Virus record (IMG/VR): IMGVR_UViG_2541047900_000001
Direction: 5' to 3' (one strand)
Origin: a virus
Taxonomy: Monodnaviria; Loebvirae; Hofneiviricota; Faserviricetes; Tubulavirales; Inoviridae
Length of the DNA stretch: 10,306 nucleotides
The position numbers and the translations under genes were made by a program. Of this stretch, positions 1 through 10,306 are shown in pieces. Position 1 is the stretch's first letter. Each line of letters begins with the position of its first letter. The notes under the pieces were generated by a model that was not told the origin of the DNA, searched no databases, and saw only the letters and a list, made by a program, of their open reading frames with translations.

Positions 1-14
1 ACATTATGCGCACC
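1..14 (-). other. Partial dif site (XerC arm plus first 3 bases of the central region), truncated by the window edge
   Basis: Bases 1-14 ACATTATGCGCACC are the exact reverse complement of GGTGCGCATAATGT, i.e. the XerC arm GGTGCGCATAA plus TGT of the central region of the E. coli-type 28-bp dif site. The rest of the site would lie left of the window. Confidence 0.75.
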
Positions 15-154
15 AATGGTAAGGATGGCAGAATCTGGCGGGAATCGTTGACACTGGCCGTCAACTGGCTACTATCGACAGTGATTCAAAATCATCCGTT
101 TCTCCAAACGAATCAGAATCAAATGTCTGTCAGCAGTAAGTGAACGGCCTGACC

Positions 155-403
155 TCACCAATCAGGCCTGTTCATCCAGTTAGTTGGTAAATCTGTACCT
201 GATACACGAGAATCAAACACCACTTCTTCAGTGCCATCACCATGATGCCGGATAATCTGGTAACCGGATTGCGGGTTCTGGCTCTCAGCTTCATAAGCAG
301 CCCGGAATGCTGGATCTTTGAGAAGCATCACTTTCAGCTCCTGATGTGTCATGAATTTTTCCATGATAAGCCCCGATGAATGCTGCCGCGCCGAATCAGC
401 CAT
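155..403 (-). CDS. Hypothetical small protein (82 aa) in the cargo position downstream of the secretin; start codon uncertain
   Basis: Intact ORF. No convincing Shine-Dalgarno at the annotated start, and internal Met codons (MEKFM..., MTHQELK...) are alternative starts. No family assigned. Confidence 0.4.
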   Translation of the reverse strand: MADSARQHSSGLIMEKFMTHQELKVMLLKDPAFRAAYEAESQNPQSGYQIIRHHGDGTEEVVFDSRVSGTDLPTNWMNRPDW

Positions 404-548
404 AACGCTGAAAATGGAAACTGTACGGCTTGGCCAACCCCGGACAGCAACAAAACAAGTTTTGTCACTGACCGGCGTTATCTTTCAAAACAGACAGTTA
501 ACGATTTTTTGTCTGGTGTTTATGCGTGAAATTTCGTGCGTACGAAAT

Positions 549-797
549 TCACCACCAATAAACAAACGGACGATGACTGACCGGAAAAGCAATGCCGTCA
601 GCATCATGACCACGCATTACCTGATTGAGAAGCCTTCTGACTTCACGACGCTCAGGCCTGGTCATCATCATATTGCGATACCAGGACGGCGATTTATCAA
701 ACCATCTGGCACAACTGGCAAAATGTGAACCTACACGACGATAAGACTTAAGGCGTCCACCGGGAAGTCGGTCACGCGCCTTATTTTTTACAGACAT
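549..797 (-). CDS. Hypothetical small basic protein (82 aa), cargo gene immediately downstream of the secretin
   Basis: ORF preceded on the minus strand by AGAGGA, 6 nt, ATG (strong Shine-Dalgarno). Arg/Lys-rich translation. No family recognised. Confidence 0.5.
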   Translation of the reverse strand: MSVKNKARDRLPGGRLKSYRRVGSHFASCARWFDKSPSWYRNMMMTRPERREVRRLLNQVMRGHDADGIAFPVSHRPFVYWW

Positions 798-885
798 AAT
801 AAATCCTCTAAGTAACTGAATACCTAGAAGATGTCGTACTGTTCATACCCCATAAAAGTTAACGCCATAATAAAAATCCATACAA

Positions 886-2130
886 TCAGTTCAGGTTGTC
901 CCGGAACAGTTCACCGCTCCTCGCGGCGCTGCGGGGCGTCGCCCTGCTCCGGTCAACCTTTCTGACCTGAAGCATCACCATAATATCAGTCTTGTTGCTT
1001 TCACTGGTACGGGAACCGAAGAAGCTCCAGCCGGAACTGGCCTTACTGTCTTTCTGTTCAGCAAGGCCACCAAGTAAAATAATATCACCATCTGCAAGGC
1101 TGACTTCGGTTGTTACATCACGCTTGATAAGGGTTGGCGAGTTATTGACGCCGGTTTCAGTGGTCACAAAGTTGGAAAGCTGCTGCTGAATCTTGAGATC
1201 CATTGTCCGACTTTTGATTGATGGCGTCACGTTAAACAAAACACCGCTGGAACGATATTCAACGGATTGCGTTGTCGTATTGTTATTCACCGTAACACTG
1301 CCCAGTACTGGCACATCAGAGCCGACTGAAAAAGACGCTGAGGCATTATTTTTTACCCGCAGTCGTGGCGCACTGACAACAGTAAAACGACTGTCGGTTT
1401 TCAGCAGATTGAAAATGGCATCAATGGAGCCGGTTCGAATATTGATAAAATTATCCAGTCCGGCAGCACCAACTGAAATATTGAATTTATCAGACAGAAT
1501 TTTAGCCGCTAAAAGAATGCCGGAGCCGTCAGACTGCGAGGTCTGAACCTCAAAAACATAACCAGAAACAACCACTTCATCACTCATCGTATCCAGCGAA
1601 GTGACCAGTGTTTTCAGGATGGCGATATCCTCTTTCGTACCATAATAAACCAGAATATCACCGGTTCGATTGATGTAGTTGCTTGCCCCTGATGAACCTT
1701 TTAGCGAATCGTCAGAAATCACGGCTCCACTGTTATTGAAGGAGCCTGAAACGTAGCCGCCAAGAATATCAGACAGGTAAGCAACAGAACGGTACTGAGG
1801 CGTATAAGTCCATGTATAACGTGGCTTAACCGGCTCTTTCGGCGTATAGGGCGCGATAAAATCAACACCCTTTTTCGTCCATATTCGAATGTTCATATTG
1901 CCAAGATAACGGGTTACAAATTCCCGTTCATCAATATCAGGTGTTAACCTGAATGTAATCATTCGTTCATCATTAACAAGCTGTGGATCTAGCATATACG
2001 GGACTTTAAGCACCTCACTGTAAATAAGAGAAATAGCCTCCGGTAGCTTGACTTTATTTAATTCAAGCTCTGACCCTGCGAAAGCACATGAAGAAAATAG
2101 TAGCGTTAATGCGAGTAAAATCTTTTTCAT
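886..2130 (-). CDS. Filamentous-phage pIV-type outer-membrane secretin
   Basis: 414 aa with N-terminal signal peptide MKKILLALTLLFSSCAFA. C-terminal half has the secretin-like pattern (VVSAPRL..., SVG..VP..., ILLGGL) resembling Ff gene IV protein. Its ATG overlaps the upstream gene's TAA by 1 nt (2130). Confidence 0.88.
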   Translation of the reverse strand: MKKILLALTLLFSSCAFAGSELELNKVKLPEAISLIYSEVLKVPYMLDPQLVNDERMITFRLTPDIDEREFVTRYLGNMNIRIWTKKGVDFIAPYTPKEPVKPRYTWTYTPQYRSVAYLSDILGGYVSGSFNNSGAVISDDSLKGSSGASNYINRTGDILVYYGTKEDIAILKTLVTSLDTMSDEVVVSGYVFEVQTSQSDGSGILLAAKILSDKFNISVGAAGLDNFINIRTGSIDAIFNLLKTDSRFTVVSAPRLRVKNNASASFSVGSDVPVLGSVTVNNNTTTQSVEYRSSGVLFNVTPSIKSRTMDLKIQQQLSNFVTTETGVNNSPTLIKRDVTTEVSLADGDIILLGGLAEQKDSKASSGWSFFGSRTSESNKTDIMVMLQVRKVDRSRATPRSAARSGELFRDNLN

Positions 2131-3155
2131 TATTTTTTCCCCGTATAAAGCGTCACACGCTCACCATCAATAATTCCGCTCATCAACATCCCTTTGTAAT
2201 TAAAACTGGATGCAGGAACGGCACGCAAAACACCGGCACCGTTAACAAGAATCACAAACGCCCTGCCTTCACTGGTCATTCTCCCTGATATACGCCACTC
2301 GGTTGAAAGTGGCGGTTCAGCTGGTTCTGAGGGAGTATCTGGTGCTGGAGTAGCAGCGGAAGAACGAAACATGGCCGCATCACGTACATCTGTTGTAGTC
2401 AAATCTGGCGAGGGATCGCTTCGGCCAAACGTGCTGAAAAATGAGTAAATCAGCCAGCCTGACCCGATAAACATCAATGGAAAAAGCACAAGAAAGAACC
2501 TGACTTTGCCAGAATTCCAGATGCTCTGGCGTTTATCTGTCTGCTTTTCATTACCGTTATTTCCTTCATAACTTTTGTAAAGTTCAAAAATATCAGGGTT
2601 ATATTTATTGCGATAACTGGTGACGAGGTTGCTTTTATAGATTTTGTGGCCTGAATATACGTCAATGCAATAATGATTATTCAGGCCCAACGCTTTCAGC
2701 TTGCGCATCCGGTAAGTTGTTTCTATTTTGTCTTTCAGAAAGCGAGCAATATTAGAAAGTGACTGATTTACAATAACCAAATCACAGCTAATACCCGTTT
2801 CAGGGTGCGTAAAATGACGATGTTCAGCAATAAATGATTTCTTCTCAGCCGTCATATCCTTATCGCTACCGAAGATTCGCCATGCTTCATCAATAACAAT
2901 TAAATCACCAAACTGGCAAAAGCTCCCTTCCCCACCTTTAAAAGGAAAGAAATCTGCTTTAAGCACATCATCATTATCCACAACAATAATTTCTCCCGTT
3001 GCATCAGGATAACGTTCGGTGATTTTATCTTTTTGTAAACCATAAATGTTCGTCACAACTCTCCGGCCGCTGGTAAATGCCGGAATAATGACATTGTAAA
3101 CGGCTTCATAACTTTTTCCTGAGCCGGGTATGCCAATATATGCAGAAATAGCCAT
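2130..3155 (-). CDS. pI / Zot-family phage assembly ATPase
   Basis: 341 aa; Walker A P-loop GIPGSGKS at residues 8-15; central hydrophobic helix (FFLVLFPLMFIGSGWLIYSFF); Pro/Ser/Thr-rich C-terminal region. Position directly upstream of the secretin as in Ff, CTX-phi (zot). Confidence 0.88.
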   Translation of the reverse strand: MAISAYIGIPGSGKSYEAVYNVIIPAFTSGRRVVTNIYGLQKDKITERYPDATGEIIVVDNDDVLKADFFPFKGGEGSFCQFGDLIVIDEAWRIFGSDKDMTAEKKSFIAEHRHFTHPETGISCDLVIVNQSLSNIARFLKDKIETTYRMRKLKALGLNNHYCIDVYSGHKIYKSNLVTSYRNKYNPDIFELYKSYEGNNGNEKQTDKRQSIWNSGKVRFFLVLFPLMFIGSGWLIYSFFSTFGRSDPSPDLTTTDVRDAAMFRSSAATPAPDTPSEPAEPPLSTEWRISGRMTSEGRAFVILVNGAGVLRAVPASSFNYKGMLMSGIIDGERVTLYTGKK

Positions 3156-3158
3156 AAC

Positions 3159-3446
3159 TCACCCTATAACAGGAATACGTCGAATAATAAAACGAGTAGC
3201 CATTGCGGAGATAATCATACTAATCCCCTGTGGTAATTTACTCAGGTTAATGAAGTACCAGAATCCGTCTGATAAATTGGCAAACAGCGATGAGAGATTG
3301 CTTGAATCTGGCAGTAACTCAACAAGGATTTCAACGAAGCCCTGGACTACAAAATACAGCGCAAAGAATACGACGAATTTAATAATCAATGACCGGAATA
3401 CAAAACCTAACAAAGTATTTAATGCACTAATCAGAATCCCAAACAT
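3159..3446 (-). CDS. pVI-like minor coat / membrane protein
   Basis: 95 aa, strongly hydrophobic; AAGGAG Shine-Dalgarno 7 nt upstream of ATG; lies between the pIII-like and pI genes as gene VI does in Ff phages. Confidence 0.6.
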   Translation of the reverse strand: MFGILISALNTLLGFVFRSLIIKFVVFFALYFVVQGFVEILVELLPDSSNLSSLFANLSDGFWYFINLSKLPQGISMIISAMATRFIIRRIPVIG

Positions 3447-3458
3447 AGTTGCACTCCT

Positions 3459-5171
3459 TTAGGCACTCAGAATAATACGGAGCGCAACAAATCCCCATAT
3501 AATCAGAAATATGGTTTCTACGGCGCTTCTGTTCTGCTCAATTAACGGACAATGGGAGTCAATTCTGTACTGGTGATTAAACACGCTGAATTCAACAACG
3601 GGGCAGGATGCTGAACGAGAGCCGATGTTAAATTCGTTTGTAAAAGGCAACAAGTTAATAATTGGCGTTAAAATATCTCTTGCCGTTGGCGTTTCTTCAA
3701 GCTCAGGCTCTTTTACACCGGGATCTTCTCCCAAATCTATATTGCCATTATTTCCAGTGTCAGATCCTGAGTTGTTATTAATGGTAATATCAATATTGAC
3801 GTCAGCCCCTGCACTGTCAGATACAGGTGAAAGCATATCTAATAACGTTGGAGATAGCCTAAGTTCCGACATCGCAGAAGTTACTTCAGCCGGTGAAACC
3901 TCTTTAAACGGTAAGCCGTTATAATCGGCATTAACGGCAGCTTCAGACCACAGCTCGTTAATCATGTCGGCAAGAAGTGCTGGCGATACACTAACACTAT
4001 CAAGATACTCCAGATAATCAATCATGGACTCAATATTTCCGGCCTCCAGTACTTCCGTCATGGCTTTATATTTGGTATTGGTCCAGATAGTAAGCTCACT
4101 CTTTTCATCAATATCTTTTGCGGTGTAATCCTCTTTTTCAGGAACGGCGCAAATCGTCGAATATCCACCATTTGACTGATTAGTCGTTTTACAAGGCGTG
4201 TTGTGATACTGATATTGCTTTCCTGCTGTTAAATAAGCAACGCTGTAATACATGGGAAGCCCTGCTACATTTTCATACATGGGAATACCTGCGGGAAATG
4301 AAGATGCGGCCGGGTTGCTATACAAGTGTGTAATCTCAGGTATTTCATAAAATGAGGAAGGATAAGTAAACTTATAATTCTGTTCAGTAAAGGATACATC
4401 TCCATTACTGTTGACAACTTTATTCGTCACAGTGCGTTCAAAATTCGTTAGTGTTTCAGTATAAGTACGCGAGTTATAGTCATTAAGATAATTTCTGGCA
4501 ATTTCAGTTGGATTATCACCATAGTAATAAATTAGCTCTTTCGAATCCTGATAATAATAAAGTGCATTATCTGGCGTGGAATATCCTGTTTCAACACCTA
4601 CAACTGGAGAACCCGCATCCACATTATTACGACTAACATGAAGGATTACCGGACTTAATTCCTGTGGTTCAAAATTAACGGTTATCGTCTTACTTTCACC
4701 ACTTTGACCACTGTACGTTACTTCATATAAATTATCGGAAATCTTTTTACCGTTAGTCATTACCATTACCGAGCCGTCAGATGAACTCAAAGAAGACGGA
4801 ACAAAAGATGATACAGCAGCAGCAATACCCGCCCACGTTGCAACACCGCTCATTTTGTATGATGAGGCAGCAGGCAAGTATTCGGCAGCATTAGCCGCAG
4901 CGCGGCCAACAAAAACACGGGTTGCTGTAAGCTGTGATGCCGTATAAATCGCATCATTGGCAGCAAAGCGACGAACAAGCACCCGGCCAACGACTTTAGG
5001 AATAACAGCCCGCGCAGCCACTGCTGCAATTGCTGGTACAAATGAATATGAATATCGGGGAAAGGAAACCCAGAGAAAGGAAAAAATAAAGGAATAAACC
5101 GTCAGCCTCTTAGCCCAAGAATAACGACATAAGCTGAGACGATCCCCCATAAAAGGGAACCCAATTTCCAT
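3459..5171 (-). CDS. pIII-like adsorption (receptor-binding) minor coat protein
   Basis: 570 aa; GGAG Shine-Dalgarno 7 nt upstream of the ATG at 5171; Gly/Ser/Asn-rich linker (NNNSGSDTGNNGN); C-terminal hydrophobic anchor (TIFLIIWGFVALRIIL); position after the major coat gene. The exact N-terminus is uncertain. Confidence 0.65.
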   Translation of the reverse strand: MEIGFPFMGDRLSLCRYSWAKRLTVYSFIFSFLWVSFPRYSYSFVPAIAAVAARAVIPKVVGRVLVRRFAANDAIYTASQLTATRVFVGRAAANAAEYLPAASSYKMSGVATWAGIAAAVSSFVPSSLSSSDGSVMVMTNGKKISDNLYEVTYSGQSGESKTITVNFEPQELSPVILHVSRNNVDAGSPVVGVETGYSTPDNALYYYQDSKELIYYYGDNPTEIARNYLNDYNSRTYTETLTNFERTVTNKVVNSNGDVSFTEQNYKFTYPSSFYEIPEITHLYSNPAASSFPAGIPMYENVAGLPMYYSVAYLTAGKQYQYHNTPCKTTNQSNGGYSTICAVPEKEDYTAKDIDEKSELTIWTNTKYKAMTEVLEAGNIESMIDYLEYLDSVSVSPALLADMINELWSEAAVNADYNGLPFKEVSPAEVTSAMSELRLSPTLLDMLSPVSDSAGADVNIDITINNNSGSDTGNNGNIDLGEDPGVKEPELEETPTARDILTPIINLLPFTNEFNIGSRSASCPVVEFSVFNHQYRIDSHCPLIEQNRSAVETIFLIIWGFVALRIILSA

Positions 5172-5195
5172 AATTCAATCTCCATAATAACCTCA

Positions 5196-5222
5196 AGTAA
5201 AACGGGCGATATTGCATCGCCC
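5196..5222 (-). terminator. Putative rho-independent terminator between the major coat and pIII-like genes
   Basis: Inverted repeat GGGCGAT (5204-5210) / ATCGCCC (5216-5222) with 5-nt loop, followed on the minus strand by GTTTTAC. Ff phages carry a terminator at the same place after gene VIII. Confidence 0.5.
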
Positions 5223-5235
5223 ATGAATAATGAAT

Positions 5236-5469
5236 TTATGCGGATTTAACGGTACGCAATACCCAGCGAACGCCAGCGACACCGGCATAAAGTGTTACCA
5301 GTGAAGCAGCAACGGCCATAATCGCAACCAGAACTGTACTGAAATCAATGCTGTTCGTCAGCGGCGATAAATCAACACCACTTGATGCCGCTCCTTCTGC
5401 AGCGAAAGTCGCGCCAGAAACAGCCATTAATGCAGGTACAGCCAGAAAATTAACGTTTTTTTTAAACAT
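5236..5469 (-). CDS. pVIII-type major coat protein precursor
   Basis: 77 aa; signal peptide MFKKNVNFLAVPALMAVSGATFA then a ~54-aa mature peptide with acidic N-terminus, hydrophobic core and basic C-terminus (RWVLRTVKSA). GGAGA Shine-Dalgarno 7 nt upstream. Confidence 0.85.
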   Translation of the reverse strand: MFKKNVNFLAVPALMAVSGATFAAEGAASSGVDLSPLTNSIDFSTVLVAIMAVAASLVTLYAGVAGVRWVLRTVKSA

Positions 5470-5503
5470 AACTCTATCTCCATTACATTTTAAAGGTTCG
5501 CAT

Positions 5504-5755
5504 TCAAGCAGTACGAACCATCTTTATTACCTGTCCCACACCTACAGAAAAAAGCCAGAGCAGCAGGACAGAGCCAAAACCTAATGTCCAGTAATTTCCC
5601 ATTGCAGAATAATCAATTTGATGAAATGGTTCAGAACGTACCATTATTGCCTGACATTCTTTTGCATTGTTCGCATTACATAAATAACCTTCAATACGGT
5701 AACCATTTTCAGGAATATGATTATCAAACTGAATATCGAAACCTGATGTATCCAT
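5504..5755 (-). CDS. Small protein with C-terminal transmembrane helix; possible minor coat/assembly protein (pVII/pIX analogue)
   Basis: 83 aa; C-terminal hydrophobic segment LGFGSVLLLWLFSVGVGQVI; start 2 nt after the upstream gene's stop (TGATTATG), suggesting translational coupling; sits between the ssDNA-binding and major coat genes. Confidence 0.45.
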   Translation of the reverse strand: MDTSGFDIQFDNHIPENGYRIEGYLCNANNAKECQAIMVRSEPFHQIDYSAMGNYWTLGFGSVLLLWLFSVGVGQVIKMVRTA

Positions 5756-5757
5756 AA

Positions 5758-6075
5758 TCAGCCTTTTATTTCAGTAATGCCGCCATCTGATGAAATGTTA
5801 TAAGTTACTCCTTCCCTCCCCTCCATTGACCAGACGCGAACATATACAGGTATCTGGACTAACTTACCGATAAAATTATTTGCCTGATTCATTACACCGG
5901 CATTAACAAGAGCCTGAGATACACGAATAATAATCTGGTCTTGCTTAGTGCCGCCAAAACCATCAGGAATCTCTAAGCCAACACCAATTTCATTATAGTA
6001 TCCCTGACCATTGACCTTATTACGCTGGCGAGCACCAAGCATTTTACCTTTTACAAAAAGACCATAATTAGACAT
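5758..6075 (-). CDS. Probable ssDNA-binding protein (gene V analogue)
   Basis: 105 aa; AAGGAG Shine-Dalgarno; immediately downstream of the replication gene, where gene V lies in inoviruses. Assigned mainly by synteny and size. Confidence 0.55.
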   Translation of the reverse strand: MSNYGLFVKGKMLGARQRNKVNGQGYYNEIGVGLEIPDGFGGTKQDQIIIRVSQALVNAGVMNQANNFIGKLVQIPVYVRVWSMEGREGVTYNISSDGGITEIKG

Positions 6076-6086
6076 ATCACTCTCCT

Positions 6087-7139
6087 TTAATGCCAGTTAC
6101 TGGCATGTGAAATACGGTTATAATCGAAAATTAAACCTTTCTCATAAACCCATGATGGAATTTTGGCTGGTTTGGCTTCAAGAGTACGAACCAACGGAAC
6201 AACGTTATTAGAATCCGGTGACTCACAATAAAAGTTAATATCTATTCCGAAAGAAAGTAATTCTTTACGGTGTCGGTAGAATGTAGGTTTCGGTAACATC
6301 TCTTTCATGTTCGCGCCCTGCTTCCACAATAAATATGTAGACTGTATTTTTCTTGGGAGATTAATTATTTTTTCATCAGTTAATATAGTATTTTGATTCA
6401 TTTCTATTCTCCCTACATAGTCAGAGAATAATTTATTGGGCGTCTCAATATTCCAGCTATTACCAAGCGTAAGATTCAAATCAATTAATTCAGTTGTTCT
6501 TAATGTTAATTCAATGCGTAATTTATCTTTTGACCAGTCCAGTAAACCAGCTTTAACGAATTCGTCTGCCATCTGGTGCCCTTTTTTGCCAGATGTATGC
6601 TCATCATATTTTGAATAAAATTTCAGGCTCCAACGACGGGAGTTTTTCCCTAAGTAAACAGTGCCACCTTTACCACAGGCGCGACCGTGGCGAGTTTTAG
6701 CTTTAAATTCTGCGGCATATAACCATGCGCGGACATTTTCTAATGTTGACAATGAATACATGTAATTGATATCGATGCGCGAGATCTTAAATTGCCCTTC
6801 CATGACCTGCCGATAGGATGGTAGATCATGAGGAATATGCAGTAATGCCAATATTCTGGCGTAAGCTGTTAACACCAACCCTTGCAAATCGTCGGAACCG
6901 ATAACAGAGTGACCTTGCAAAAACTTTGATGGATTACCGTCAATGTAGAGATGTGTTGCCCGACCTTCACCATCAGATCCAACAGACCTTACTTTCATTG
7001 TGGACTCATGCGAACCGCGAACGGTCAACCGTTTTACTGTTTCCCACTCCACTGCACCGTCAGCATCGACGCTGACGACACTACCAGCCGGTAACGGTCG
7101 GTGTGTGCAAGGCAGGATTCCGGTAAACCAGTCGATCAT
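6087..7139 (-). CDS. Rolling-circle replication initiation protein (gene II / RstA-like)
   Basis: 350 aa; first gene of the minus-strand module, divergent from the HTH repressor as rstA is from rstR in CTX-phi. Size and position typical of inovirus replication initiators. Confidence 0.8.
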   Translation of the reverse strand: MIDWFTGILPCTHRPLPAGSVVSVDADGAVEWETVKRLTVRGSHESTMKVRSVGSDGEGRATHLYIDGNPSKFLQGHSVIGSDDLQGLVLTAYARILALLHIPHDLPSYRQVMEGQFKISRIDINYMYSLSTLENVRAWLYAAEFKAKTRHGRACGKGGTVYLGKNSRRWSLKFYSKYDEHTSGKKGHQMADEFVKAGLLDWSKDKLRIELTLRTTELIDLNLTLGNSWNIETPNKLFSDYVGRIEMNQNTILTDEKIINLPRKIQSTYLLWKQGANMKEMLPKPTFYRHRKELLSFGIDINFYCESPDSNNVVPLVRTLEAKPAKIPSWVYEKGLIFDYNRISHASNWH

Positions 7140-7277
7140 AAGTAGTCACACCCATCAAAATATGTGTCAATAGTCATTTGTGAGCAGATTGAATGGTCAC
7201 AATGTAATATGCTCAGATCTGACAGTCAATACATTTGCAATGTTTAAATTGTCAAAAATGAGCATCAAATCTAACTA
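7140..7277. promoter_or_regulatory. Divergent control region between replication gene and repressor (copy 1); probable promoters, operators and possibly the origin
   Basis: 138-bp AT-rich spacer between divergent genes. Contains a perfect 10-bp palindrome TCAGATCTGA (7213..7222), an inverted repeat TGTGA...TCACA (7180..7200) and three TGTCAA-like motifs (7165-7171, 7224-7230, 7250-7256). Exact -35/-10 elements could not be assigned. Confidence 0.55.
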
Positions 7278-7712
7278 TTGATGAAGTTATGGCGGACAAA
7301 CAGAGAGCAGAACGGTATCAAAAAGGTAATTCTGGAACACTCGACTTATGAAGAACTGGCCGAGAAGACTGGCATTAGCGTGAGTACGCTGGTCAGGATA
7401 GCGTCCGGCAAAACTGAACCTAAATTCAGTGACATCATTCAGATAGCTAAAATTACGGGTGCAGACTTAAACACCTTAGCTTATGGCTATGCTCTTGATG
7501 TTAAAGAAGAAGCTACCGAGCGGAAGCTAATCACTTCTGCGGATGGATATACTGATGAAGAAACCACTAACGCACATAATTTCATCGTGTGGAACATCAG
7601 GACACTGGAAAAACAAGATATTCTGGCACTCGCAAGGCAGGTTTCTGCCTTAAGTTCATACACTTACAGTACTAAAATGTTTATGAAAAAAGCGGTGTCT
7701 GGAGAAGAGTAA
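7278..7712 (+). CDS. HTH (XRE/Cro-C1-type) repressor, copy 1 with altered 5' end; possibly non-functional
   Basis: 144 aa, identical to copy 2 from IKKVILEH onward. Lacks the 46-bp segment carrying copy 2's Shine-Dalgarno and start, begins at TTG/ATG without a recognisable ribosome-binding site, and an extra G changes the first ~12 residues. Confidence 0.45.
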   Translation: MMKLWRTNREQNGIKKVILEHSTYEELAEKTGISVSTLVRIASGKTEPKFSDIIQIAKITGADLNTLAYGYALDVKEEATERKLITSADGYTDEETTNAHNFIVWNIRTLEKQDILALARQVSALSSYTYSTKMFMKKAVSGEE

Positions 7713-7726
7713 AAGGATTAACAGTC

Positions 7727-7879
7727 TCAGGAATGAGACAAACGTGCAGTATTACCGCGAACGGTCAACCGTTTTACTGTTTCCCACTCCACTGCACCGT
7801 CAGCATCGACGCTGACGACACTACCAGCCGGTAACGGTCGGTGTGTGCAAGGCAGGATTCCGGTAAACCAGTCGATCAT
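7727..7879 (-). pseudogene. Truncated duplicate of the replication gene 5' end (42 native codons plus 8 out-of-frame codons)
   Basis: 7754..7879 matches 7014..7139 (rep codons 1-42); reading continues into the reverse complement of the repressor copy 1 3' region and stops after 8 codons. Confidence 0.8.
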
Positions 7880-8050
7880 AAGTAGTCACACCCATCAAAA
7901 TATGTGTCAATAGTCATTTGTGAGCAGATTGAATGGTCACAATGTAATATGCTCAGATCTGACAGTCAATACATTTGCAATGTTTAAATTGTCAAAAATG
8001 AGCATCAAATCTAACTATTGAAAAACCACTGTTAAGATGGAGCCAAGTAG
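7880..8050. promoter_or_regulatory. Divergent control region, copy 2, with extra 46-bp segment providing the repressor ribosome-binding site and start
   Basis: Same motifs as copy 1 (palindrome TCAGATCTGA at 7953..7962), plus 8021..8066 containing GGAG about 9 nt upstream of the ATG at 8051. Confidence 0.55.
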
Positions 8051-8497
8051 ATGGGCAACAATGAGCATGAAGTTATGGCGGACAAACAGAGAGCAGAACG
8101 TATCAAAAAGGTAATTCTGGAACACTCGACTTATGAAGAACTGGCCGAGAAGACTGGCATTAGCGTGAGTACGCTGGTCAGGATAGCGTCCGGCAAAACT
8201 GAACCTAAATTCAGTGACATCATTCAGATAGCTAAAATTACGGGTGCAGACTTAAACACCTTAGCTTATGGCTATGCTCTTGATGTTAAAGAAGAAGCTA
8301 CCGAGCGGAAGCTAATCACTTCTGCGGATGGATATACTGATGAAGAAACCACTAACGCACATAATTTCATCGTGTGGAACATCAGGACACTGGAAAAACA
8401 AGATATTCTGGCACTCGCAAGGCAGGTTTCTGCCTTAAGTTCATACACTTACAGTACTAAAATGTTTATGAAAAAAGCGGTGTCTGGAGAAGAGTAA
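8051..8497 (+). CDS. HTH (XRE/Cro-C1-type) transcriptional repressor, intact copy
   Basis: 148 aa; helix-turn-helix segment STYEELAEKTGISVSTLVRIASGKTEPKFSDIIQIAKITGADL matches the XRE pattern; GGAG Shine-Dalgarno; divergent from the replication gene as rstR is in CTX-phi. Confidence 0.85.
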   Translation: MGNNEHEVMADKQRAERIKKVILEHSTYEELAEKTGISVSTLVRIASGKTEPKFSDIIQIAKITGADLNTLAYGYALDVKEEATERKLITSADGYTDEETTNAHNFIVWNIRTLEKQDILALARQVSALSSYTYSTKMFMKKAVSGEE

Positions 8498-8525
8498 AAG
8501 GATTAACAGTCTCAGGAATGAGACA

Positions 8526-8554
8526 AACGTGCAGTATTACCAACACTGCACGTT
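8526..8554 (+). terminator. Putative rho-independent terminator of the repressor gene
   Basis: Perfect 10-bp inverted repeat AACGTGCAGT (8526-8535) / ACTGCACGTT (8545-8554), 9-nt loop, then CTTTATTGTG. Only the left half is present after copy 1 (7741-7750). Confidence 0.6.
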
Positions 8555-8593
8555 CTTTATTGTGCGAATTTTGAACAATGAAAAAGGATCAAA

Positions 8594-9016
8594 ATGATGA
8601 GTAGAAATAACGAAACAAGCGGCGTTGAATTGGTTGTCGTGGGCGTATTTGCTTTCTGTCTGGCAGTTGTTGCCTGGTTAATGAAAACTTTCGATGTTGA
8701 ATGGCAAACAGCACTGGAAACTGCGCCTGGCCTGATAGTCTGGTTGCTTGTTGTCGGTGCGGGGATCTTTTTCGGGATCAAAATGGAAACAGGTCTTGTT
8801 CGCTGGGGTGCCCCACTGGCGATCGCCCTTCTGATTCCGGTATTCAAACCAATTCTTAAGGAAGCTGCCGGAGTACGTGAAATGGGTGGGTTGGTTTTCG
8901 ATGATATGGTTTCGTGGTACGGAACTGGCTGGGGAATGTCTCTGATGTTTTTTGGAATTCTTATCGTCGGATACGGTCTGCTTTATTGGTGGCACCGAAG
9001 AAATTCATATTATTGA
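8594..9016 (+). CDS. Small integral membrane protein (about 4 predicted transmembrane helices), function unknown
   Basis: 140 aa; AGGA Shine-Dalgarno 5 nt upstream of the ATG; four hydrophobic segments (VVVGVFAFCLAVVAWLM, LIVWLLVVGAGIFFGI, APLAIALLIPVF, MSLMFFGILIVGYGLLYWW). Antisense ORFs 8557..8847 and 8678..8995 judged to be shadows. Confidence 0.7.
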   Translation: MMSRNNETSGVELVVVGVFAFCLAVVAWLMKTFDVEWQTALETAPGLIVWLLVVGAGIFFGIKMETGLVRWGAPLAIALLIPVFKPILKEAAGVREMGGLVFDDMVSWYGTGWGMSLMFFGILIVGYGLLYWWHRRNSYY

Positions 9017-9018
9017 TA

Positions 9019-9049
9019 TAATATTACCCTAGGTTAACTAGGGTAATAT
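9019..9049. promoter_or_regulatory. Near-perfect 31-bp palindrome (13-bp arms, 5-nt spacer): terminator or protein-binding site
   Basis: AATATTACCCTAG (9019-9031), GTTAA, CTAGGGTAATATT (9037-9049); lies 3 nt after the stop of the membrane-protein gene, at the transition into AT-rich DNA. Confidence 0.55.
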
Positions 9050-9117
9050 TCAAATACTAAATTTTTACATTTTATCTGACCATCTTTGATCAGTTAAAAC
9101 ACTGGATTTTAAGTAAA

Positions 9118-10221
9118 ATGAGAAAAAAGATGCCGGACTTGATTACTGATACATTGAAAGTAGTTACTTCTTTTTTTGTGGCATTAGTCCTCAATAAGTT
9201 TTTATCTATATTTAGGAAAAGACAACTTTACTTATCCTGTTGGAACTCCTTGAGTAAAACCTCAATATCTGACAATGCAATAGTAATAAATGCATCAGTA
9301 TTTAATAAAGGTAAGGATAAAGAAAAAAATGTAGAAATAAAAGTCCCAAACGGTATGTCTTGTACTGTAATTGCAAGTGATCATGATGCAACTACCGAAG
9401 GTTCTTTTGTGAAGATAGATAGAATATTAGCAAATAAAAAAATATCCATGGTGCTCTTGATTGAAGGAACAAGAGTTCTTGATAAAAGTACCATGCCTTC
9501 CATAAGATCAGAAGATACTGACGGGAAAACATACCTTTCAAAAGACTCAGTGCCACCGAGTGCAGGTTCTTTTATTTTAGGCGGTGCTATTTTTGCTGCA
9601 TTTTTCAGTTATATGGTCATCAGTATCCAAACAGAAGACAACCCTCTCGCGGGCCCATTGAAAGCATATAACTACATGATTTATAACAATATGTACAATT
9701 CTGGACTTTCGATTAATCCTATAGGTAATGGACTGATAACTGAAAATTACAATCTAAGAGCGAATGAATACCCTATTGAAATAATAGATGCCAAGATAGA
9801 AAAAAATCAAATAATGTTCAAATTTAGAATAATTAATAAAACATCAGAAGCACTGAAAGTTTCAGGCGGATGGAGAATATATAAAAACTTTCAATATATT
9901 TCCGAACATGTTGATACATTTGATTATAAAGATGAAAAGAAAAGAGAAGAAGAAGAAATAAGGGTGTATAAGAAATACAATGTGGAATTTGTTAATGATA
10001 ATGGATATCTTATGGAAAAACCGAAAGAAAGGGTTGAAGTTCCTGCAAATTCAGTTGGCTATATTATAATAAACAGAAAATACTCTCCAAGCATTACTTA
10101 TAATGACCTAAACATCGAGTTTAACTTTAGTGGTGGTTCAGGTGAAATATACCAAGAAGCAGATATGCTTTTTACAGCTAAGAATTCTAATATAAGCAGT
10201 ACTATATTAGACAAGAAATAA
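9118..10221 (+). CDS. AT-rich hypothetical membrane protein with two predicted transmembrane helices and large Lys/Asn/Ile/Tyr-rich domains; function unknown
   Basis: 367 aa uninterrupted ORF in visibly AT-rich DNA, unlike the rest of the window. Hydrophobic helices near the N-terminus (VVTSFFVALVLNKFLSIF) and mid-protein (FILGGAIFAAFFSYMVISI). Weak Shine-Dalgarno; a second in-frame ATG 4 codons downstream is an alternative start. Confidence 0.7.
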   Translation: MRKKMPDLITDTLKVVTSFFVALVLNKFLSIFRKRQLYLSCWNSLSKTSISDNAIVINASVFNKGKDKEKNVEIKVPNGMSCTVIASDHDATTEGSFVKIDRILANKKISMVLLIEGTRVLDKSTMPSIRSEDTDGKTYLSKDSVPPSAGSFILGGAIFAAFFSYMVISIQTEDNPLAGPLKAYNYMIYNNMYNSGLSINPIGNGLITENYNLRANEYPIEIIDAKIEKNQIMFKFRIINKTSEALKVSGGWRIYKNFQYISEHVDTFDYKDEKKREEEEIRVYKKYNVEFVNDNGYLMEKPKERVEVPANSVGYIIINRKYSPSITYNDLNIEFNFSGGSGEIYQEADMLFTAKNSNISSTILDKK

Positions 10222-10227
10222 TTAATT

Positions 10228-10254
10228 GGTTCGCACAATGACGTTATGCTAAAG
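10228..10254 (+). other. Degenerate dif-like sequence (candidate Xer recombination site) with a 5-bp central region
   Basis: GGTTCGCACAA TGACG TTATGCTAAAG versus dif GGTGCGCATAA TGTATA TTATGTTAAAT: 9/11 matches in each arm, central region one base short. Orientation is inverted relative to the dif fragment at 1-14. Confidence 0.4.
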
Positions 10255-10290
10255 AGGCCGCTGCGGAGGCCATTTTCGCAGCGGCCTTTT
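10255..10290 (+). terminator. Putative rho-independent terminator downstream of the AT-rich gene
   Basis: GC-rich inverted repeat AGGCCGCTGCG (10255-10265) / CGCAGCGGCCT (10277-10287) followed by TTT; flanked by a further inverted pair CGTTATG / CATAACG. Confidence 0.55.
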
Positions 10291-10306
10291 CAACATAACG
10301 AGTCGC

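Follow-up and report, generated by a model that had tools for sequence, protein, structure and literature searches.

In the filamentous phage CTXφ, the repressor gene rstR and the rep gene are divergently oriented on either side of a short spacer, Ig-2, which carries the rep promoter, and the spacer together with the repressor gene forms a hypervariable cassette that sets the immunity type among otherwise near-identical phages. In YpfΦ, a filamentous phage that has been linked to virulence in the modern pandemic Yersinia pestis and that has a near-twin, CUS-1, in extra-intestinal Escherichia coli, the repressor YPO2273 has been described as an RstR homologue in the same position (PMC4266046). 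Here, we examine a genome of 10,306 nucleotides (IMG/VR record IMGVR_UViG_2541047900_000001; hereafter, the window) and, within it, the control region at 7140-7277 (138 bases, 33% G+C), which separates rep (6087-7139, − strand), coding for a rolling-circle initiator of the gene II/X family (Phage_CRI/G2P family), from a gene on the + strand, divergent from rep, for an XRE-type helix-turn-helix (HTH) protein, the repressor. A first-pass annotation of this DNA had seen in the spacer candidate operators for the repressor and/or recognition and nick sites for Rep, and had noted that the region is duplicated. The duplication is real: 7014-7281 and 7754-8021 are 100% identical, at an offset of +740, and the second copy of the control region, at 7880-8050, has the wild-type length of 171 nt, against which the right side of the first is shortened by a 46-bp deletion. 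We conclude that 7140-7277, with its copy at 7880-8050, is probably the operator-promoter region of an immunity cassette of the CUS-1/YpfΦ type, and the counterpart of CTXφ Ig-2.

The motifs from which the first-pass annotation started are all present. The 10-bp perfect palindrome TCAGATCTGA was confirmed at 7213-7222. The inverted repeat TGTGA (7179-7183)/TCACA (7197-7201) is there too, and extends to TTGTGA (7178-7183) and TCACAA (7197-7202), but it is neither significant nor conserved (locus L016 has TCTGA at this place). Three TGTCAA-like motifs occur, TGTCAA at 7165-7170 and 7250-7255 and AGTCAA at 7224-7229, although not as operator units: two of them are TTGAC(A/T) hexamers of the -35 type on the − strand, invariant in all relatives whatever the repressor type, and the third (7250-7255) is the left half of O_C, one of the sites described below. 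In 1000 dinucleotide shuffles of 7140-7277, one perfect 10-bp palindrome had p = 0.19, inverted repeats of 5 or 6 bp within 20 nt p = 0.35 and 0.65, two TGTCAA p = 0.07 and three GTCAA p = 0.04, and GTCA, of which 2.2 copies were expected and six found, p = 0.005. Taken one by one, the named motifs are weak; the three-fold repeat that underlies them is not.

A repeat search showed that a 25-nt element is present three times in the spacer, at 7162-7186 (A, + strand), 7210-7234 (B, − strand) and 7240-7264 (C, + strand), with pairwise identities of 17-18 out of 25; the best triple of 25-mers scores 53, and the maximum in 300 shuffles was 46. The element is built around a 14-bp pseudo-palindrome, nGTCA-N4-TGAGC, and the centres of the three predicted operators that it defines, O_A, O_B and O_C, are exactly 39 bp apart. 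O_A (7172-7185, AGTCA-TTTG-TGAGC) would span about +10 to +23 in the predicted transcript of rep, O_B (7211-7224, GCTCA-GATC-TGACA) contains the 7213-7222 palindrome and falls in the spacer of the predicted rep promoter, and O_C (7250-7263, TGTCA-AAAA-TGAGC) would be at about -56 to -69 relative to the rep start; in the second copy, the corresponding positions are 7912-7925, 7951-7964 and 7990-8003. The pattern GTCANNNNTGAGC has six matches in the 10.3-kb window, all of them in the two control-region copies, against 0.06 expected; as the pattern was derived from the same sites, only its absence from the rest of the window is independent evidence. Several dyad-symmetric sites of about 14-18 bp at or next to the regulated promoter, here three, are characteristic of operator regions of the Cro/C1 type. 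If the spacer were a promoter region and nothing more, its palindromes and repeats being chance products of AT-rich DNA without specific binding, the failure of the single motifs to reach significance and the low G+C content would be as expected; we consider this unlikely, since the three-fold repeat scores above all shuffles and the pattern is exclusive to the control regions. It would also have to explain palindromes that stay in place while both of their halves change together and track the recognition helix of the adjacent repressor, as detailed in the following.

The wild-type repressor gene, in copy 2 (8051-8497, + strand), codes for a protein of 148 amino acids (WP_000527682) with an HTH domain of the XRE or Cro/C1 type (Pfam HTH_3, E = 1.6e-9; Phage_CI_repr, E = 4e-4). 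The structural model has a five-helix fold matching those of 434 Cro, SinR and P22 c2, with helix 3, the predicted recognition helix, at about residues 39-46, and the HTH domain superposes on 434 Cro with a root-mean-square deviation of 1.4 Å over 63 residues, at 32% identity. The C-terminal part consists of two long helices, modelled with low confidence, and has no S24 peptidase domain; therefore, no self-cleavage of the RecA type is expected. A protein search returned homologues of 55-85% identity, and seven of them, each encoded divergently beside a rep gene, were retrieved with their flanking DNA (six used in the comparison, plus L022). The upstream regions, aligned on the repressor start codon, are near gap-free. 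A palindrome of the 5-4-5 form is found at the position of O_C in eight out of eight homologous modules, with a constant inner CA-N4-TG and with outer bases that vary symmetrically, three pairs showing changes on both sides. The half-sites track residues 38 and 40 of the repressor, at the start of the predicted recognition helix: modules with the helix start GISVS or GISIS (the window, L016, L019 and L021) have GCTCA..TGAGC, perfect in L019 and L021 and in the form nGTCA..TGAGC in the window; those with GINVR (L013 and L017) or GIGVR (L029) have GGACA..TGTCC; and the one with GISVR (L028) has TGCCA..TGGCA. Operator and helix covary, with four helix classes corresponding to three half-site types across the eight modules. 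The same holds at O_A, where the block TGTCAATAGnCA..TGAGCA is invariant in the four modules with the same helix type and the right half obeys the helix/half-site code in the remaining modules, and in L016 the counterpart of O_B is a perfect palindrome, GGTCAGATCTGACC. Two sites that change in concert, keep their symmetry and match the protein are the pattern to be expected of the operators of a dimeric HTH repressor; with gene and sites linked, this constitutes strong circumstantial evidence for them, short of proof. The three-fold repeat and the covariation taken together, the spacer very probably carries operators for the HTH repressor, as was first proposed; the unit is the 14-bp site, not the motifs then listed, and TCAGATCTGA appears to be, as that annotation suggested, an operator sequence, namely the core of O_B.

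Related HTH genes occur in other settings. Homologues on conjugative plasmids of about 41 kb (e.g. locus L012, 2486-2854) share with the window a 135-nt stretch of the HTH part at 93% nucleotide identity; no operator-like site was found in 5 kb around the L012 gene, and these plasmid homologues, which have the same recognition helix, provide no independent test of the code. At L022 (2001-2396), the protein P0014 has a window-type N-terminus and HTH domain behind an almost identical control region, joined to the C-terminal half of the plasmid homologues, which looks like a domain exchange between phage and plasmid regulators. The Logan contigs L024-L027, near hipA, contain a heavily deleted remnant of the window prophage at dif, which has lost the control region and in which an in-frame fusion of part of rep with the repressor gene codes for a 163-amino-acid protein, P0002; this had been considered as a recurrence of the repressor variant with an additional G described below, and proved to be an unrelated deletion remnant.

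The inverted arrangement of elements B and C offers a further reading of the repeats, in which the pair folds in the viral single-stranded DNA (ssDNA) and acts as a minus-strand origin, in the manner of the promoter-mimicking hairpins of the Ff phages. The arms, 7209-7235 and 7239-7265, are 74% complementary and form an imperfect inverted repeat of 27 nt with a 3-nt loop and TTGACT inside it, and the minimum-energy fold of the spacer uses it. Against this, the fold does not stand out (z = -1.5, equalled by 13 of 200 shuffles) and the long hairpin is not conserved in the seven homologues, whose consensus structure keeps only the 14-bp palindrome of O_C, so that we regard a minus-strand origin at this place as highly improbable.

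The predicted sites are interspersed with the elements of a predicted promoter of rep. Promoters were scored with a simple weight matrix, and the top match in the window, which is also the only good σ70-type promoter in the region (12.9 versus at most 10.3 for the alternatives), is a predicted rep promoter on the − strand with a -35 hexamer TTGACT (7229-7224), a 17-nt spacer and a -10 hexamer TACATT (7206-7201); in the second copy, these elements are at 7969-7964 and 7946-7941. The equivalent promoter ranks first in six out of six homologous modules scanned, where it falls on a conserved GTCAAT block, and in the heteroimmune L003 (12-14 versus at most 10.7). From its position, we infer that rep transcription starts near 7194. 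For the repressor, a conserved extended -10-like element, TGT-TAAGAT (8030-8038, + strand), is a candidate promoter; it is absent from copy 1 and in copy 2 is located just upstream of GGAG (8039-8042) and the ATG (8051). Six of the eight modules have TAnnAT here, at a constant distance from the start codon, the remaining two have TAAACT, and a TG comes before the hexamer in seven of the eight. In the switch that we propose, dimers of the adjacent XRE-family repressor would bind to O_A, O_B and O_C and shut off the rep promoter, O_B by occluding the core promoter and O_A and O_C by flanking it. The repressor would be transcribed from its own extended -10 element, directly before the start codon, and may be autoregulated, positively or negatively, through O_C; in the intact copy, the predicted start of the repressor transcript (near 8045) follows O_C by about 48 nt.

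Several points weigh against this interpretation. All three sites in the window are imperfect, with one half nGTCA instead of GCTCA. The operator at O_B is found only in the lineage of the window, and L013, L017 and L028 carry a conserved TTGAGATC at that place; nor does the 39-bp spacing amount to a whole number of helical turns. The repressor gene and the operators are linked and only four helix classes are represented, so the correlation between them could partly reflect shared ancestry. There is no convincing -35 hexamer for the repressor promoter, which the conserved GGAG could place further upstream. Finally, according to a 2014 review, the role of the YpfΦ repressor still needs experimental proof (PMC4266046). 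The repressor-operator reading is nevertheless supported by the repeats and by the covariation, both read from sequence.

A different possibility is that the sites chiefly serve host regulators (RovA/SlyA, Dam at GATC 7216, CRP or LexA) and not the phage repressor. In YpfΦ, RovA reportedly represses YPO2274-2279 and binds in the region of the promoter of YPO2274, the rep gene (PMC4266046, citing Cathelyn 2006), and the GATC in the promoter spacer is kept in six of the eight modules, in some of them without an operator there. Yet sites for host factors would not change with the recognition helix of the repressor, no LexA box is found in the region (at most three mismatches to the 20-mer, or at most one to CTGT-N8-ACAG), and the TGTGA/TCACA pair has the wrong spacing for CRP; host regulators are an improbable explanation for the sites as a whole. 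Host control is compatible with repressor operators and is no replacement for them. The co-regulation by LexA and the SOS response that is found in the CTXφ-type cassette is not seen here. The CRP consensus has its half-sites separated by N6. TGTGA-N13-TCACA was accordingly rejected as a CRP site, its p value and lack of conservation being further grounds. As to Dam, the GATC at 7216-7219, inside O_B and within the spacer of the rep promoter, is retained in modules that include L013, L017 and L028, which have no repressor site at that position, and rep expression might be sensitive to the methylation state in a replicon that cycles through ssDNA.

Next to O_A and abutting it is a constant element, TGTCAATAG (CTATTGACA on the rep-sense strand), at 7165-7173 and, in copy 2, 7905-7913. 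It is identical in all eight homologous control regions whatever the repressor specificity, lies within the predicted rep leader and contains a perfect -35 hexamer without a conserved -10. A second leftward promoter starting from this invariant TTGACA (7170-7165) was discarded, no usable -10 following it in any homologue; the element might be a translational or RNA element, a host-factor site or a gpV site.

The comparison with phages of other immunity types shows how far the cassette extends. L003, L006 and L007 code for Rep proteins 93-100% identical to that of the window and for unrelated repressors, and have no nucleotide similarity to it in 7140-7722. The similarity to these phages ends exactly at the rep start codon (7139) and restarts at 7723, 11 nt beyond the repressor stop codon, and L008 and L009 (Rep 86-87% identical) show the same break at both boundaries. 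The heteroimmune cassette of L003 has three repeats of its own around an equivalent promoter. Spacer and repressor gene are exchanged as a unit between phages with a common replication module, as in cassettes of the CTXφ type, and by this comparison of sequences 7140-7722 is a swappable immunity cassette in the pattern of CTXφ Ig-2 plus rstR.

The exchange also bears on the proposal that the spacer is a Rep recognition and nick site, i.e. the plus-strand origin, with the palindrome or the TGTCAA repeats as Rep iterons. Some rolling-circle replicons do have their origin beside or inside rep, GTCA is enriched in the spacer, and the invariance of TGTCAATAG in all relatives is without an explanation. 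However, because the spacer is swapped among phages that keep the same Rep, the Rep site should not be there: the cassette is replaced wholesale where Rep is 93-100% identical, which is not the conservation expected of an origin, and the sequence that the Rep-sharing phages do have in common is a double hairpin after the repressor gene, to the loop of which rearrangement junctions map. In CTXφ, moreover, the nick is in Ig-1, beside rstR, and not in Ig-2 (PMC8265649, PMC4439123). A Rep site in the spacer is thus very unlikely, and the downstream double hairpin is the better candidate.

This double-hairpin element (8508-8555), on the far side of the repressor gene and directly after the cassette, is kept in every Rep-sharing relative whatever flanks it. 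The viral-strand consensus is AACGTGCAGT-GT(T/A)GGTAAT-ACTGCACGTT, followed by T and then by GTCTCA-ttcc-TGAGAC. In the window, hairpin 1 (8509-8524, also 7724-7739; − strand) is GTCTCA-ggaa-TGAGAC, with two compensatory pairs in L008 and L009, and hairpin 2 (8526-8554, − strand) reads AACGTGCAGT-GTTGGTAAT-ACTGCACGTT on the viral strand; the ssDNA fold of the double hairpin has z = -5.85. Since a Rep common to all of these phages needs a common sequence, and since three rearrangement junctions (in the window, L003 and L006) fall in the loop of hairpin 2, this hairpin is most likely the plus-strand origin. All three junctions are compatible with a cut at GG^T, and Rep may nick the loop sequence GTTGG^TAAT between 8540 and 8539 of the window; the conserved double hairpin and the junctions, at 8509-8554, would put the origin on this side of the repressor gene, with the position of the nick suggested by the junctions. 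Hairpin 1 also fits a relaxed form of the operator pattern of the window repressor type, CTCA-N4-TGAG; this may be a coincidence, as the hairpin is also present in phages with other repressor types.

One of these junctions belongs to the duplication in the window. Unit 1 (7014-7753) and unit 2 (7754-8541; longer than unit 1 by 46 - 1 nt, the ends overlapping by 3 nt, ACC) join as AACGTGCAGTATTACC/GCGAACGG, that is, the loop of hairpin 2 to nucleotide 126 of rep; the junction sequence at 7741-7770, AACGTGCAGTATTACC/GCGAACGGTCAACC, fuses the left half of hairpin 2 to this nucleotide. E. coli LSN03-016011/A (L003) has the identical junction with a different immunity cassette and a rep gene 93% identical to that of the window. 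Because the copies are identical within each phage (100% in L003) and the partial rep copies, rep', differ by 5.6% between the two phages, the simplest reading is that of two independent events. In Klebsiella spallanzanii (L006), the same loop (GTATTAC/) is joined to a different partner sequence in a third rearrangement. The junction is present in one of 5426 complete E. coli genomes, and no match to it was found in viral and metagenome contig sets. An assembly artefact is an unlikely source of the duplication, the identical architecture being present in a finished E. coli chromosome, and a dif/XerCD site at the junction was rejected, as no dif match is nearby and the two dif-like sites occupy the ends of the window (10228-10255 and 10293..14). 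These junctions suggest aberrant rolling-circle termination as the source: synthesis would read through the origin and close at a pseudo-site in rep (CGCGG^TTCG, beside the palindrome AACGGTTGACCGTT). It weighs against this that the pseudo-site has only GG^T in common with the hairpin loop.

The duplication leaves one intact and one damaged repressor gene. In copy 1 (7281-7712, + strand), a deletion of 46 bp, corresponding to 8022-8067 of copy 2, has taken away the start codon ATG, the GGAG and the -10-like element, and there is one G more at 7314/7315. Its frame is open only from the ATG at 7281, without a ribosome-binding site, and has a new N-terminus (MKLWRTNREQNG...) in place of the conserved N-terminal arm. 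These lesions are found in no complete E. coli genome. As judged from its sequence, repressor copy 1 is probably silent, and could be a decaying copy or partly a sequencing error, the extra G (GG versus G) possibly a read error; if it is silent, it would fall to copy 2 to repress the intact rep, in trans. Between the two control regions is rep' (7727-7879, − strand), an open reading frame of 50 amino acids in which the first 42 codons of rep run on across the junction. The duplicated rep promoter (7941-7969) points into this frame only, and beyond it reads through repressor copy 1 in the antisense direction, towards control region copy 1. As for the consequences foreseen by the first-pass annotation, the window does contain two operator sets, the second stemming from a rare partial duplication. 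Titration of the repressor by the second set adds nothing special, since tandem prophages and multicopy replicative forms already hold many operator sets, and two origins would be a matter of the hairpin junction, not of the control region. L006 (525-4574) contains rep, ssb, coat and pIII genes and directly after them, at the loop of hairpin 2 (after GTATTAC), a new immunity cassette and a second rep; this element is truncated, and in this recalls the CTXφ prophage of classical Vibrio cholerae.

Taken jointly, these observations lead us to a tentative view, in which we place rather less than even confidence. The junctions would fix the plus-strand origin of the replication module of CUS-1/YpfΦ and UPΦ to a single nucleotide (GG^T); the recurrent duplication of rep', operators and repressor gene would be a product made by Rep, arising when the origin is passed over and the strand is transferred at a pseudo-origin located 126 nt into rep; and new immunity types would be generated by a two-residue code, relating helix residues 38 and 40 to positions 2 and 3 of the half-site. 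If true, these phages would possess a built-in route to duplication of the immunity cassette, similar in effect to RS1 and the truncated CTXφ prophages.

The window is a complete circular phage genome. It is 99.97% identical to a 9565-bp circular 'plasmid' (a replicative form) of E. coli TUM14759, relative to which it is rotated by 338 nt and has about 741 extra bases, the duplication; the same phage was found in tandem arrays at dif/hipA in E. coli chromosomes. On the − strand, it has the genes of a filamentous phage, for secretin, Zot/pI, pVI, pIII, pVIII, the ssDNA-binding protein and Rep. With Y. pestis YpfΦ it shares a Rep of 100% identity and a control region of about 99.5% identity. An attP pair is formed by inverted dif-like XerC/XerD sites, at 10228-10255 and at 10293-10306 joined to 1-14; the two sites flank a G+C-rich stem, and the window has been linearised inside the second, so that its end joins its start. 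Such an inverted dif-like pair has been described as the attP of YpfΦ (PMC4266046). Because of the match to TUM14759, the identity of Rep and the control region to those of YpfΦ and the dif-like attP pair, the window is assigned to the integrative inoviruses of the CUS-1/YpfΦ type. A megablast search of a phage collection with the control region gave no match, and the relatives used here came from E. coli genomes and plasmid records.

The control region has three predicted repressor sites, and in 2004 Kimsey and Waldor reportedly described three RstR operators in CTXφ Ig-2. The operator of phage 434, ACAA-N6-TTGT, is a 14-bp sequence used by 434 Cro. The window repressor has an HTH fold like that of 434 Cro, and its sites share with the 434 operator the length of 14 bp, conserved outer bases, a non-conserved centre and a specificity set by residues at the start of helix 3; in contrast to the 434 system, the half-sites are of 5 bp with a 4-bp centre, the sites are 39 bp apart instead of adjacent, and the repressor has no S24 peptidase domain. 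From CTXφ the locus differs in that its sites are compact 14-bp pseudo-palindromes, predicted here from sequence, and in that the region has no LexA box, whereas rstA is under SOS control (PMC4439123). The candidate origin resembles the RstA-nicked ori(+) of CTXφ Ig-1 in being beside the 3′ end of the repressor gene, in having several hairpins and in serving a Rep of the Phage_CRI/G2P family; in sequence, however, the two are not similar, the conserved element is of about 47 nt as opposed to 167 bp, and the nick in the window is deduced from junctions only. The phage is a known one and the switch is of a textbook kind, so that the gain is in annotation and testability and not in a new principle: the analysis supplies three predicted 14-bp sites, a rep promoter (start at about 7194), a specificity code with swappable bases and a candidate nick site elsewhere. 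No description of the operators, the rep promoter, the helix/half-site code or the origin candidate was found in the literature searched. Among the CUS-1/YpfΦ and UPΦ prophages of the Enterobacterales, whose replication module (genes II and V) is common to the UPΦ phages (PMC7307601) and is also that of L003 and L013, the window is one more member, and differs from CUS-1/YpfΦ in its 740-nt partial duplication and its damaged first repressor gene.

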